Source: Escherichia coli (lineage in GTDB: Bacteria; Pseudomonadota; Gammaproteobacteria; Enterobacterales; Enterobacteriaceae). From it: DNA of 64,000 bases. The DNA lies in assembly GCF_050320075.1 (NCBI RefSeq), contig NZ_CP190022.1; one strand, written 5' to 3'. This document shows positions 1,777 through 6,120 of this stretch, piece by piece. How positions within the stretch are numbered: the stretch's first letter is position 1; each line of letters opens with the position of its first letter. The notes below the pieces were generated by a model. It ran no database searches. It saw only the letters and a list, made by a program, of their open reading frames with translations, and was not told the origin of the DNA. The position numbers and the translations under genes were made by a program.

Positions 1777-2262
1777 GTGAGACTTTTGGAAGAAATGGGC
1801 GCGGAACCCCTTTATCTGACAAATATAATTGAAGCAATAAGTAGGCTAATTATCGTCGTTAACAACAAAGTTATTTTCTCTTTAGATTTCAACATAACGA
1901 TAAAATTCAAAATAGCGAGAGCCACCACCCCCCACTCAAAAAAATTATCTGTTATCAGTTCCACATTAAATCCCTTCTATAATCAAATAAACTTCACAAT
2001 CACCGCACATCAGATTAGCGCCCCATATAACGATTACGTAAAAATATTTATCATTCCAACAGCCAGCATAATGGGGTTCCAAGCCGGAAACCTAGATTTT
2101 TCCGCGACCAGTAACGGCGTGGGTTGTCACATAAAGGGCTGCGTTTGGGAAACGTACAATATTGTACGGTTGCGCTATTGCGGTAGGGTATACTCTATTG
2201 CGATAGGCAATCCTGTTCAAAAAATAGGCTTGCCGTACAATAATTATCTATATCCAAACTGA
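1777..2262 (+). CDS. Hypothetical protein (AT-rich, Ile/Asn-rich; GTG start in track, ATG at 1795)
   Basis: 161-codon ORF in an AT-rich block with no competing ORF on the other strand; no recognisable family; weak RBS. Confidence 0.3.
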   Translation: MRLLEEMGAEPLYLTNIIEAISRLIIVVNNKVIFSLDFNITIKFKIARATTPHSKKLSVISSTLNPFYNQINFTITAHQISAPYNDYVKIFIIPTASIMGFQAGNLDFSATSNGVGCHIKGCVWETYNIVRLRYCGRVYSIAIGNPVQKIGLPYNNYLYPN

Positions 2263-2272
2263 CCCCTTTATA

Positions 2273-2569
2273 TCAATTTCCTCCCCCCTGGATGAGCGTG
2301 ACGATTACTGACGGACCCTTGACGCTCCAGCAAATTCCCCTGTTCCACATAGGTTTCCAGATATGACCGGTTATTTTCACATTCGGTGTACGAGTTACAG
2401 ATGCAAATAATACAGGTGCATTATCAATATCATCAGGGATGAAATGGTAAGATCGTGGAAAATGTTTATTCATAGCCCGGATGATGGCTGTCTGTGCATC
2501 CTTTGTTCGGGCGCGGTGTGTCCATTCACGCCAGCTATTCATCTCAGAAATAATAACAGTAATCATCAA
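2273..2569 (-). CDS. Hypothetical protein, 98 aa; second gene of a two-gene minus-strand operon
   Basis: ORF with GAGG about 7 nt upstream of the ATG at 2569; starts 26 bp after the stop of the upstream ORF (2596); no family recognised. Confidence 0.5.
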   Translation of the reverse strand: MMITVIISEMNSWREWTHRARTKDAQTAIIRAMNKHFPRSYHFIPDDIDNAPVLFASVTRTPNVKITGHIWKPMWNRGICWSVKGPSVIVTLIQGGGN

Positions 2570-2595
2570 AACCTCGTGCCGTTACCGGGGTCAGT

Positions 2596-3210
2596 CTATC
2601 GATGGTTGATTGCGGCGAGCACATCCTCTGTCTCTTTCATCCTGGCGTTATAACGCTGCGTGTGTTTTTCAAGTTTTGCCTGCGCATGCAGCGCTTCTTC
2701 TTCCGTTACAGTTCCATGAACTTTGCCATCCAGACCATAACGCGGCGTACCTGCGACTGATATACGCTGCAGATATTTGTAACCGCCAGTAATCATTCTT
2801 ACAGCACAATTCCATTCTTTTACAGTTAGTCCACACTCAGGACTGGCCGAAATAAAAGCCATGACATCCTTTGAGATGCCTATTTTAAATGCATGATATC
2901 CCCCCTCTTCAGCCCGTAACTGAGGGAATGTTTTTTTAACACAGTCCAGACTGTGTCGGATAAACTCATGATTCCATCTATTGTTCTTCTTTTTTTTCTT
3001 CTTCTTACGTCCTGTTTTTTTCTGTTGTTCCGGGGAACCGGCCACTGTGGCTGGTATTTCAGGAGGTAATGAGTCGGTTTTAAATTCCATTACTGGCGCT
3101 GGTTTTATATCATCAGGAACAGCCTGTACGGCATCATCCTGGTGAAAAAGAATTCGTCTTTTTTTCTTAATAATAACAACAGGTGACGGTTTCTTTGTGA
3201 CACTGCCCAT
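2596..3210 (-). CDS. Hypothetical protein with an internal poly-lysine tract (about 204 aa from ATG at 3210; track ORF extends to GTG at 3246)
   Basis: ORF 2596-3246 in track; ATG at 3210 preferred because GAGGTG sits 6-7 nt upstream; product has a K-rich run encoded by a poly-purine tract and a C-terminal globular part I cannot place. Confidence 0.5.
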   Translation of the reverse strand: MGSVTKKPSPVVIIKKKRRILFHQDDAVQAVPDDIKPAPVMEFKTDSLPPEIPATVAGSPEQQKKTGRKKKKKKKNNRWNHEFIRHSLDCVKKTFPQLRAEEGGYHAFKIGISKDVMAFISASPECGLTVKEWNCAVRMITGGYKYLQRISVAGTPRYGLDGKVHGTVTEEEALHAQAKLEKHTQRYNARMKETEDVLAAINHR

Positions 3211-3309
3211 ATACACACCTCTGCGTATCGTTAATCTGTAATTCACGACATACAGATAGTATATATCTAAGTCAGCAAAGTCACCAACAGAATAATGATG
3301 ATATTTATT

Positions 3310-4020
3310 TCATGACTGTTCACGAATTATCACTCTGGATTCCTTCCTGGTGACATAAGTACAGTTATCAGGTACATCTTCCATAATAAAAGACATGGCT
3401 CCAATTTTTACATTACTGCCTATTTTTACGTTAAGCCCGATAATACACGTATGGGCACCTACATCGACATTATCACCAATAACGATATAATTCTCTCTGC
3501 TGTCAGATTCCTTTTCGCCAATGGTCGTATTCTGCCGTATAATCACATTCTCACCGATCTTTACATTTCCGTGAATGACGACACCTGAATGGTGGGGCAG
3601 CACGAGGCCTTTACCAATCTGCGCCCCCAAACCAATATCACATCCATACTTTGCCATAAGCGCATTTTTTATCTTGATCGCACATTTTCGTTGTTTTTTA
3701 TTCCCCGATATATACATTTCATTAGCCAGACGCCACCACAGAAGAAAACCTCTCTGCCTCTGCATACCGTTCCTGATAAGCCGGTGAAAAACAATCTTAT
3801 CCCGCATGATAACTTCTGCTTTCCAGTATTCCAGAAGATGACGTTTTTTTCCTGATAATAAAAATGTGCCAATATGGAAATAAGAAATAGGATTTTTTAT
3901 CAGCATACGCAAATTTTCAGATAACAATGAATACAGATGTATTTTATATACACAGATAAAACCGCGCAACAGACATAAATATGACAGTAGCCATGAAAAA
4001 GCAGAGTGTCCTTGACCCAC
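3310..4020 (-). CDS. Hexapeptide-repeat acyl/acetyltransferase (serine O-acetyltransferase-like left-handed beta-helix); start uncertain (internal ATG at 3906 would give about 198 aa)
   Basis: C-terminal half is a classic hexapeptide repeat run (GCDIGLGAQIGKGLVLPHHSGVVIHGNVKIGENVIIRQNTTIG...IGDNVDVGAHTCIIGLNVKIGSNVKIG); track ORF start at 4020 abuts the miniature transposable element. Confidence 0.6.
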   Translation of the reverse strand: MGQGHSAFSWLLSYLCLLRGFICVYKIHLYSLLSENLRMLIKNPISYFHIGTFLLSGKKRHLLEYWKAEVIMRDKIVFHRLIRNGMQRQRGFLLWWRLANEMYISGNKKQRKCAIKIKNALMAKYGCDIGLGAQIGKGLVLPHHSGVVIHGNVKIGENVIIRQNTTIGEKESDSRENYIVIGDNVDVGAHTCIIGLNVKIGSNVKIGAMSFIMEDVPDNCTYVTRKESRVIIREQS

Positions 4021-4026
4021 GATATT

Positions 4027-4312
4027 GGGGTCCGCTTGGAATTCGGAAATTTTCCCACGCTAAGAGAATTGAGTTGAACGAGTGGTTACATCCAGGCCAG
4101 CTAACTCACTGAACGTAAAGGCTGTACGAAATGTTCTGACCGTCCGATAACCGTTTGGCTTACTTCCGTACATTCCCTTGCGTGGATGTACAGAATTGTA
4201 CGATTTCGGACACCAAAACCGCTGTTGTCCCGCCATTCTGGCGATTCCTGAAAGTTATTTGACTAAAAAACAGTCTTAACGTGGTTTATTTTCCGAATTC
4301 CAAGCGGACCCC
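4027..4312. mobile_element. Tn3-family-derived miniature inverted-repeat element (TIME-like), 286 bp, no transposase
   Basis: 38-bp terminal inverted repeats beginning GGGG and ending ACGCTAAG / ACGTTAAG (4027-4064 and 4275-4312, outer 23 bp identical), the hallmark of Tn3-family ends; interior too small to encode a protein; no 5-bp target duplication visible. Confidence 0.6.
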
Positions 4313-4675
4313 TGTACACGCCCCGATACTGAACTGGTCAACACTATGCTGGATAGCTCTGTCGAAACGTTAAATGCTGGCGAACGACCGGTGATACACA
4401 GTGACAGAGGTGGGCATTATCGCTGGCCAGGCTGGCTGGAAAGAGTGAATGCAGCAGGTCTTATTCGCTCAATGTCCCGTAAAGGATGTTCACCTGATAA
4501 TGCCGCATGCGAAGGCTTTTTCGGCAGACTGAAAACGGAAATGTATTATGGGCGTAAATGGTCGGGCATCACGCCAGAAAAGTTCATGCAGCAAGTGGAT
4601 GCTTACATCAGATGGTATAACGAGCGGCGTATAAAATTCTCGCTGGGTGCCGTCAGCCCCAAAATGTACCGCTAA
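4313..4675 (+). pseudogene. IS3-family transposase (OrfB) C-terminal fragment, 5'-truncated at the miniature element
   Basis: In-frame translation from 4313 (CTRPDTELVNTMLDSSVETLNAGERPVIHSDRGGHY...SMSRKGCSPDNAACEGFFGRLKTEMYYGRKW...YIRWYNERRIKFSLG) carries the DDE-domain C-terminal motifs of IS3/IS150-group transposases; the N-terminal two thirds are absent. Confidence 0.7.
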
Positions 4676-5139
4676 CAATGCGGGCTGGAATGATAAAGCA
4701 GTCCAGGAAATCGTCCGCATCCCCAAAACGGCCAATAATCTTGGCGTTGACACCACCGCCAGATCAGTGGCAGAAGTGCCGTCTGCGGGCAGACCTGCGG
4801 CCGGGACCAGCGGCAGTACGACGACTTCTGCCGCACGCTGTTCTGCCCGGAGGCGGTCCTGTTCTGCCAGCAGCAGAGGCTGTGCCACGGCCCGGCCGGC
4901 GTCCGTCAGCTCCACTGCCTGCTGCAGGTTCAGTTTTTTTCTGAATTTTAACTGTATTTGTCCTTTATTGTTCTTGTTTGTTCCCTGGTGTGCTATTTGA
5001 GTCGGTTTTTGTCTTCATTTTTCTTTATTTTTCTGTTTGTGGACGATATCAGGTCTTTACTGATGCGTGTTTTTAGGTGATAATCTTTTTCGGCGCCATA
5101 TTTTTCTAAAAAAATCCATTTTATTCTGTGAGGTTCTGG

Positions 5140-6120
5140 ATGCGTATCTTTGTAGATGACGGTTCTACCAACATCAAACTGGCCTGGGTTGAAGACGGTG
5201 CAGTGAAAACGTTAATTAGTCCGAATAGTTTTAAACCGGAATGGTCTATGACGCTGCAGGGACTGACTGATGCCACTATACCCGCTTCCGCAAACTATGA
5301 GATTGATGGAGAGAAATACAGCTTTGATCAATTGAGTCCGGATGCAGTGCGCACCACAGAAACGCGTTATCAGTACAGCGACGTTAATGTGGTTGCTATT
5401 CATCATGCGTTGATGCAGTCAGGTATTGCTCCGCAACCTGTTGATATTGTTGTGACTTTACCTTTAGGTGAGTATCTGGATGAGAACGATCAGCCAAATC
5501 TGGCTAATATCGAACGTAAGAAAAATAATGTCAGACGAGCTGTAACAGTTCAGGGGCGTGAAAACTTTACCATTCGTAAAGTCAGTGTCTTGCCTGAGTC
5601 CGTGCCTGCCGGTTTTGACGTGCTGAAAGATCTGAATGATCTGGAGTCGCTGTTGATCGTTGATATCGGTGGAACGACCCTTGATATTGCACATGTCCGC
5701 AGCAAAATGTCCGGTTTCACAAAAACTTATTGTGACCCCAAGACAGGCGTTTCCATCATTACTGAAGCAGTTAAGCATGCGATGGATGTGAATGTGAGTA
5801 CACGAACCAGTTCTTATTTTGCAGATCGTCTAATCCAGGGCCGGGATGACAATGAATTCCTGACTCGTTATATCCCGAATGCAGAACAGCGTGAGCAGAT
5901 CCTGACAGTATTATGTGACCGGGAAAAAAAACTGCAGCATCGTGTGGCGGATTCAGTAGGACGCTTTGCTGGTTTTACTCATGTTATGGTTGTTGGCGGT
6001 GGTGCCAGCCTTGTGGCTGGGGCAGTAAAAAAAGCGACAGGAGTGGGTGATAACCGTTTCTTTGTCAGTGACAATCCTCAGTTCGATCTGGTGTTGGGAA
6101 TGATGGCAATGAAGGGATGA
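5140..6120 (+). CDS. parM: Actin-like partition ATPase ParM/StbA
   Basis: Translation MRIFVDDGSTNIKL...DIGGTTLDI...VMVVGGGA matches ParM/StbA actin-fold motifs; GAGG RBS 8 nt upstream of ATG 5140 (track ORF begins at GTG 5128). Confidence 0.9.
   Translation: MRIFVDDGSTNIKLAWVEDGAVKTLISPNSFKPEWSMTLQGLTDATIPASANYEIDGEKYSFDQLSPDAVRTTETRYQYSDVNVVAIHHALMQSGIAPQPVDIVVTLPLGEYLDENDQPNLANIERKKNNVRRAVTVQGRENFTIRKVSVLPESVPAGFDVLKDLNDLESLLIVDIGGTTLDIAHVRSKMSGFTKTYCDPKTGVSIITEAVKHAMDVNVSTRTSSYFADRLIQGRDDNEFLTRYIPNAEQREQILTVLCDREKKLQHRVADSVGRFAGFTHVMVVGGGASLVAGAVKKATGVGDNRFFVSDNPQFDLVLGMMAMKG

Follow-up and report, generated by a model that had tools for sequence, protein, structure and literature searches.

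How does a short segment without genes, bearing the ends of a Tn3-family transposon, come to lie in a plasmid without a target-site duplication, and what kind of element is it? The question is raised by positions 4027-4312 of the window, by which is meant the whole 64-kb stretch of DNA that was analysed. The window belongs to an IncK2/Z-type plasmid and is about 99% identical in this region to two other plasmids, CP088867.1 and NZ_JBUXMJ010000003.1, the latter a sister plasmid from the E. coli genome set. A sequence-only reading of the same DNA had described the segment as a Tn3-derived miniature element that abuts an IS3 remnant and lacks the duplication.

The extent of the element follows from a repeat finder, which returns a single inverted repeat with arms at 4027-4065 and 4274-4312 that are 87% complementary and bound exactly 286 bp, in agreement with the size and bounds first read from the letters. 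Read from the outside in, the left end (IRL) is GGGGTCCGCTTGGAATTCGGAAATTTTCCCACGCTAAG and the right end (IRR) is GGGGTCCGCTTGGAATTCGGAAAATAAACCACGTTAAG. The two ends share the form GGGG...ACGYTAAG and match at 33 of 38 positions (87%), only the first 23 nucleotides being identical throughout, so that the earlier description of the terminal repeats as perfect was wrong. The comparison with Tn3-family ends that had been proposed as a check yields a match of 35 of 38 positions between IRL and the tnpA-proximal end of a Tn3-family transposon, and this upholds both the designation of the segment as a Tn3-derived miniature element (TIME) and that of its termini as canonical 38-bp ends of the family. 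IRR is the best-conserved part of the element across divergent homologues (0.93). The segment at 4027-4312 is a TIME: its 286 bp lie within the size range of such elements (about 50-500 bp), its 38-bp ends are related to those of Tn3-family transposons, and it has no transposase gene. The absence of any internal gene had been recognised from the start and holds good, the sole open reading frame being one of 58 aa on the minus strand without a match in Pfam. That frame (58-64 aa, with its stop within IRL) was considered as a C-terminal remnant of TnpA and set aside, given the lack of a Pfam match and its dissimilarity to the C-terminus of the partner TnpA. A search of Rfam with positions 3000-6000 gave no match, and a sigma-70 scan of the element found no outward promoters. 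Folded as RNA, the element forms a long hairpin of -105.6 kcal/mol (z = -7.15); a long hairpin is typical of TIMEs, with reported energies of -70 to -115 kcal/mol (PMC4133298). The features of the locus are collected in Table 1.

Table 1. Features at and near the miniature element in the window, with the basis on which each was placed
Feature	Start	End	Strand	Basis
Empty target site TTTAT	1811	1815	+	Window counterpart of the insertion site of the second copy in NZ_JBUXMJ010000003.1
Serine/colanic-acid-type acetyltransferase gene	3310	3906	-	PGAP start in two near-identical plasmids
Orphan 20 bp TGTCCTTGACCCACGATATT, terminus of an IS3-family element (IS-X)	4007	4026	+	Exact matches elsewhere; outer IS end in L117 and L118
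Tn3-derived miniature element (TIME), complete non-autonomous copy	4027	4312	+	Inverted repeat; 286 bp; unit recurrent in PLSDB
IRL, 38 bp, GGGG...ACGCTAAG	4027	4064	+	35/38 against the tnpA-proximal IR of autonomous transposons (L025, L081)
res site III-like segment, including half-site TGTACGAAA	4103	4140	+	Alignment with the tnpR-proximal part of the L106 tnpR-tnpA intergenic region; half-site spacing
res site II-like segment, 32 bp, CGTCCGATA...TTCCGTACA	4141	4172	+	Length and inverted half-sites as in L106, TGTACGAAAT...TTTCGGACA
res site I-like segment, 26 bp, TGTACAGAA...TTTCGGACA, putative crossover	4187	4212	+	Colinear with TGTACGAAACCGACCGGTTTCGGTCA adjoining tnpA in L106, L107, L025 and L102
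IRR, 38 bp, GGGG...ACGTTAAG (minus-strand reading)	4275	4312	-	33/38 against IRL
Remnant of a second IS3-family element (IS-Y), 3' third of the transposase gene and intact right terminal repeat	4314	4752	+	Profile match

The 286-bp unit matches 2193 plasmid records in PLSDB, mainly from Escherichia, Klebsiella, Shigella and Salmonella, 565 of them over at least 80% of its length, and a unit that recurs so often is not a product of chance. Among complete E. coli genomes, a match is present in 1510 of 5426 (28%) and a near-full copy (at least 80% of the length) in 523 (9.6%), with 1799 matches on plasmids and 227 on chromosomes. Among the matches listed, no annotated feature was found on the element, the features there being overlapping neighbouring genes. 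Homologues at 70-77% identity in other genera have the same architecture of 275-287 bp. Many plasmids carry copies truncated, for instance, to positions 1-206 or 1-88, which lack part or all of the res-like interior described below. Truncation at position 206 is seen in many IncF plasmids, and a full copy with the same left junction occurs in L112. In both L005 (2950-3206) and L112 (1950-2001), IRL is preceded by a MITESen1-like 38-bp inverted repeat (GGGGGCAGTTTGGATATCGAAAATTATTGTACTATAAG) and then by GGGTCCGCTTGA, nested end debris which suggests that Tn3-type ends have repeatedly been inserted into one another. A derivative of about 100 bp (L010, 4008-4108) consists of positions 1-88 and, in variant form, the final 12 nt of IRR, CAAGCGGCCCCC, and fragments of 1-88 are common, for example in pCT (L008), with a yagA segment in place of the remainder.

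The nature of the interior escaped the sequence-only reading and emerged from alignment with the tnpR-tnpA intergenic region of autonomous transposons, in which TGTMCGAAA half-sites are repeated. The alignment is colinear and is obtained in one orientation only. Its z is 4.0-6.4 when the window copy is used and 7.1-9.0 with L068, a homologue at 77% identity, and 0-1 of 300 dinucleotide shuffles attain its score. The half-site spacing of 18-23-23-17 nt is identical in the element and in the transposon res. Across five divergent homologues (alignment A1) the three subsites are conserved at 0.71-0.77 (0.76 for site II) and the 14-nt spacer between sites II and I at 0.26, a pattern resembling a footprint. 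By BLAST, the similarity of the window copy to the transposon res is moderate (E about 1.5), so the putative res of the window copy is assigned from its architecture and from the more similar homologue. The subsite names III, II and I, and the position of the crossover in site I, are given by analogy with the known organisation of Tn3-family res sites, which we take to apply here; on that analogy the crossover would fall in the site I-like segment. The interior is thus homologous to the res of the autonomous transposon (z 4.0-9.0 over the colinear alignment), with a putative function in resolution, and res-bearing TIMEs are expected to have such a site related to the res of their parent. Ends and res together place the element with the IS101/TIME244 type.

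The autonomous relatives were sought by scanning one genome per species for GGGGNCCGCTTGGAANNCGGAAA, which returned 93 loci in Enterobacterales, Vibrio and Shewanella. In five of these (L025, L064, L074, L081 and L092) an ORF of about 1000 aa, TnpA, terminates 36 bp inward of the outermost base of the repeat, and its stop codon lies within the IR; in Tn21-type transposons, likewise, the stop codon of tnpA is inside the IR. The tnpA-proximal IR of the autonomous family is GGGGTCCGCTTGGAAAACGGAAATTATCCCACGCTAAG. The partner TnpA is present at 99% identity or more in 159 PLSDB records, E. coli plasmids among them, where it adjoins a divergently transcribed serine recombinase gene and is annotated merely as 'Tn3 family transposase'. 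Autonomous tnpR-res-tnpA transposons of this kind (e.g., CP063712.1 127702-130686, AP022059.1 and Vibrio furnissii CP040989.1) resemble the element in the IR, which agrees with IRL at 35/38, and in the TGTMCGAAA half-sites and their equal spacing, but differ in encoding TnpA (about 994-1008 aa), TnpR (QOX20828.1 being the TnpR cognate to the candidate helper) and passenger genes. The IR-proximal segments of the element are not derived from the autonomous transposon. Positions 4065-4102, which adjoin IRL, have no homology to the 3' end of tnpA, so that a simple deletion within one of the sampled autonomous transposons does not account for the element. Within the 64-kb window no homologue of tnpA or tnpR was found, so that the element is non-autonomous here, and the tnpR-res-tnpA family with its matching ends and res is the likely source of transposase in trans, a candidate helper by virtue of IR identity. 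In one member (L107, 8064-9345) IS4321, of the IS110 family, sits in the tnpA-proximal IR. IS4321 is known to target Tn21-type ends, and this insertion fits the Tn21-like nature of the ends. In a single genome of Photorhabdus cinerea at least 12 contig ends (L013-L024) finish in a related IR, GGGGTCCGCTTGGAAAACGGAAAATATCCTACGCTAAG, which indicates a large expansion of a related element.

That the element has moved recently, a point missed in the earlier reading, is seen in the sister plasmid NZ_JBUXMJ010000003.1 (L109), from strain CFIAFB20190157. Its resident copy is identical to that of the window at 286/286 positions, and a second, inverted copy at 1812-2097 (285/286) is flanked on both sides by TTTAT. 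The window holds the uninterrupted site, CCCTTTATCTGAC, and is colinear with the stretch that separates the two copies, which identifies the second copy as a simple insertion. The duplication, together with its empty counterpart in the window, shows the element to have been mobile recently. The 5-bp duplications typical of TIMEs, in which 6 bp also occur at times, are thus present at this second copy and also at a Xenorhabdus homologue (L060, ATTTA/ATTTA), and are missing at the window copy. The two inverted copies of the sister plasmid bracket a hypothetical gene, a ProQ/FinO gene and the acetyltransferase gene (1812-4599), and the bracketed segment is a TIME-COMP-like composite that arose from the fresh insertion.

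The flanks of the window copy tell of a more complex history. The left flank ends ...CCCACGATATT (GATATT) and the right flank begins TGTACACGCC... (TGTAC); re-inspection of the pentamers, ATATT against TGTAC, leaves the reported absence of a 5-bp duplication unchanged. On the left, the element had been said to abut the start of the acetyltransferase ORF, which is the case for the longest ORF (GTG at 4020) and not for the PGAP start at 3906. The DNA upstream of the acetyltransferase gene is homologous to that of related, pCT-like plasmids as far as 4006-4009, and the junction consists, in order, of this upstream DNA, the terminal 20 bp of an IS3-family element, and the miniature element. These orphan 20 bp have an exact match of 21-22 nt in 262 plasmid records and form the outer end of an IS3-family element, IS-X, in L117 and L118. 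In L116 (2440-2525) an IS2 copy is inserted precisely at the outer edge of the IS-X terminus, and this boundary is the same as that at which the acetyltransferase region meets the orphan in the window. The element lies 20 bp inside the IS-X end, directly after CGATATT, and in L010 it lies 67 bp inside a variant IS-X-like end, after a second CGATATT. Since IS-X-type ends contain two CGATATT motifs, several copies have the left flank GATATT in common, and these insertions hint at a target preference. Most of the 93 IR flanks are AT-rich pentamers, and a G or C often stands before them. The possibility that GATATT is part of the element itself was dismissed, as in the window and in L010 the flank stems from the CGATATT motifs of IS-X-type ends and other copies have other AT-rich pentamers.

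On the right, IRR is followed by a single T and then by IS-Y, which begins at about IS position 1222 and extends to an intact right end at 4752. The claim that this end cuts an IS3-family transposase gene is confirmed by the translation from 4313, which covers positions 253-369 of 369 of the NCBIfam IS3 profile, and by PGAP, which annotates a partial IS3-family pseudogene in the sister record ('incomplete, missing N-terminus'). The IS-Y remnant is 96-98.7% identical to full copies, some of its relatives are labelled 'IS150 ORF B' by depositors, and its termini are TGTCAACGCC... as in L108. IS-Y sits in a conserved backbone ORF upstream of parM, and positions 4753-4931 beyond it are common to 2240 records. 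In comparison with L007, L008 and L002, the 700-bp acetyltransferase segment (3310-4009) is inverted relative to repA with respect to pCT-type I-complex plasmids, and the neighbouring ProQ/FinO gene (2596-3246) is dissimilar at the nucleotide level to its counterpart in pCT-type plasmids. The whole interval from rep to par is a mosaic.

The reading favoured here, which we hold with considerable confidence, is that of a TIME with ends and a three-subsite res whose duplication was lost through a secondary event in IS debris. In the scheme that we infer for its transposase, its resolvase, the function of res and the type of event, the element would consist of two 38-bp transposase-binding ends and the three-subsite res, without genes, and would transpose only with a Tn3-family transposase supplied in trans, likely by the tnpR-res-tnpA family. 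Replicative transposition would yield a cointegrate, and its resolution at res or by RecA would leave the element within a 5-bp duplication. The window copy would originally have been inserted 20 bp inside the end of IS-X, upstream of the acetyltransferase gene. A later event, either an adjacent deletion by intramolecular replicative transposition or a recombination between two copies (by resolvase at res or homologous), would have fused its right end to the interior of IS-Y at about 1222, upstream of parM, and removed the rest of IS-X, the intervening DNA and one copy of the duplication. A search for the element and its flanks in related plasmids, as had been suggested, finds both junctions in PLSDB in CP088867.1 only and, in addition, in the sister NZ_JBUXMJ010000003.1. 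Since the junctions are confined to one plasmid lineage, a secondary rearrangement is the right kind of explanation. The earlier proposal that a recombination or deletion joined cargo to backbone is sound in invoking such a rearrangement and too simple for the nested IS and TIME debris upstream of parM. Within PLSDB, no record holds the hypothetical ancestral right junction (IRR followed by ATATTCAGACTG...), and neither the reciprocal junction nor the presumed ancestral simple insertion in IS-X was found.

Which event took place can be weighed from the flanks of this and other copies. Intramolecular replicative transposition into IS-Y at (A/T)GTAC, deleting the DNA from the right end to the target so that the left flank is original and the right flank new, is a plausible course to which we give slightly less than an even chance. 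Adjacent deletion is established for Tn3-family elements, the left flank forms one coherent IS terminus and runs up to an AT-rich pentamer typical of the targets of the family, the right flank starts inside an IS without a matching pentamer on the left, and the window has one copy only and PLSDB no reciprocal junction; yet this course requires a transposase in trans at the time, of which the window holds none, and the deleted circle is not observable. Recombination between a copy in IS-X and a copy in IS-Y, by resolvase at res or by RecA over 286 bp, would swap the flanks and delete the DNA between, and we regard it as a serious candidate falling a little short of an even bet. The element has a res-like site, a plasmid with two copies exists (L109), and the duplication is kept in only 2 of the 16 distinct full-length contexts examined, which suggests that such elements act as recombination hotspots. 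In L002, L111 and L113 one junction is common and the other side different: the left junction, beside the ParA-side backbone, is essentially the same (the L113 flank is one base shorter), and the right flanks are of three kinds, leading to FinO/acetyltransferase or, by two distinct junctions, into a colicin Ia module, a pattern to be expected from recombination at a portable res or from repeated deletions on one side. Gomi and Yano likewise inferred a resolvase-mediated inversion between copies of TIME244 (PMC13367494). Against an exchange between copies, its parental junctions were not found in PLSDB, and the polymorphism does not place the exchange at site I: among six close copies (alignment A1) four-gamete violations are found among pairs of sites that span the putative crossover and also among pairs outside it, so the exchange point is not localised to res.

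Other origins for the segment fare less well. Its ends and res derive from full-length Tn3-family transposons, and it might be the wreck of one whose interior was deleted on the spot, but the same 286 bp recur unchanged in many unrelated settings, and the homologues at 70-77% in other genera keep the 275-287 bp architecture. This origin is extremely improbable, being refuted by the fresh insertion in L109, which has both its duplication and a corresponding empty site. Domestication as a site of plasmid multimer resolution or maintenance would account for the location among rep, par and toxin-antitoxin modules, and the element has a res-like interior and recurs beside parM, parA, RelE/ParE, Phd/Doc and repA. 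The window, however, encodes no serine recombinase related to the candidate TnpR, many plasmids have only truncated copies without part or all of res, and the position of the element differs between relatives, so that domestication is unlikely. The window copy is a scar of nested mobile elements and not a new system, and the element is of an ordinary kind.

Other copies lie at the edges of plasmid modules (L003, L004, L110, L111, L113 and L114, and also L006, L009, L010 and L011). The bacteriocin modules concerned are those of colicins E2/E3, Ia, V and B/M and of a lasso-peptide microcin, and the others are toxin-antitoxin (RelE/ParE, Phd/Doc), partition (parA, parM) and repA modules. One copy, in L003, connects a complete ColE2 operon with an E3-type colicin gene that is truncated, an arrangement resembling the 'degenerate transposon-like structure' reportedly described in ColE9-J by Lau and Condie in 1989. 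The left flank of L012 and the right flank of L003 (both ATAAA) were considered as two halves of one colicin E3 target, an idea abandoned because the flank in L012 does not belong to a colicin coding sequence. Beside cvi in L110 lies a variant of the element of 282 bp. The widely used APEC/ExPEC 'cva/cvi' forward primer, TCCAAGCGGACCCCTTATAG (PMC8581539 and four other papers), consists of the last 14 nt of the element (the terminus at window 4298-4312) and 6 nt of flank, from which it follows that the ColV locus used for primer design abuts a copy. For typing, this means that a common cva/cvi PCR primer anneals to the terminus of the element.

The element matters mainly because it is so prevalent and because it is likely to serve as a hotspot of recombination. 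It marks junctions between colicin/microcin, toxin-antitoxin, partition and replication modules, and offers a mechanism, open to testing, by which modules could be exchanged and cointegrates formed. Annotation pipelines do not see miniature Tn3-derived elements, and recognising this one explains puzzling breakpoints in plasmid comparisons. A wider and more speculative proposal, which we offer tentatively as possible and rather doubtful, is that the element is the principal portable res of the F-type and I-complex plasmids of E. coli, where resolvase recombination between copies, and not transposition, repeatedly swaps modules between plasmids. If true, it would extend to bacteriocin, toxin-antitoxin, partition and FinO/acetyltransferase modules, and would account for the lack of duplications at about 7/8 of the copies and for the frequent combination of one conserved and one variable flank.

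Among known systems, the element was compared with IS101, IMU, MITESen1 and TIME244, whose reference sequences are those of Table S2 of Gomi and Yano 2026 (PMC13367494). Its ends agree with theirs at 18-31 of 38 positions, the nearest being IMU (31/38), TIME244 (30/38) and MITESen1 (30/38), and it is not identical to any of the four across its full length. A match of the interior to one of these elements was rejected, as local alignment scores are 14-18 against a shuffle mean of 16.5. The element is also absent from the lists of TIMEs in Gomi and Yano 2026 (PMC13367494) and Szuplewska et al. 2014 (PMC4133298), and the published description of pO26-CRL-125, which carries a full copy (L111), makes no mention of it. 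Judged by these comparisons, it is an unnamed, or at least uncatalogued, TIME distinct from IS101, IMU, MITESen1 and TIME244. IMU, the integron mobilization unit, is of nearly equal length (288 bp) and has the closest named end, its IRL matching the IRR of the window, but its interior is unrelated; it is mobilised in trans by a transposase of the Tn21 subgroup, and similarity to res is not reported for it (PMC13367494). MITESen1 (256 bp, ISFinder) is likewise a TIME of enterobacterial plasmids whose IRR matches the IRL of the window, some copies of the element (L006) have a MITESen1-like outer end, GGGGTCAGTTTGG, and copies of MITESen1 without duplications have also been reported (PMC13367494, Fig. 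S4 legend), although its interior is unrelated and similarity to res is not reported. IS101 of pSC101 is similarly a gene-less Tn3-family miniature with both ends and a res, but is 209 bp long, has ends of the Tn3/Tn1000 type (18-21/38) and has an interior that cannot be aligned. IS101 is mobilised and resolved by its helper Tn1000 and has a functional res (PMC4133298, PMC13367494), function being shown experimentally for IS101 and putative for the present element. TIME244 (244 bp) resembles the element as a TIME of the Tn21-subgroup type from enterobacterial plasmids, with 38-bp ends, an IRL that matches the IRR of the window and a putative internal res homologous to that of its parent transposons (PMC13367494), but its interior is unrelated and its parent res is of a different type. 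TIME244 occurs in 0.94% of Enterobacteriaceae genomes (PMC13367494), as against 28% (a fragment or more) and 9.6% (at least 80% of the length) of complete E. coli genomes for the element, figures with different denominators.
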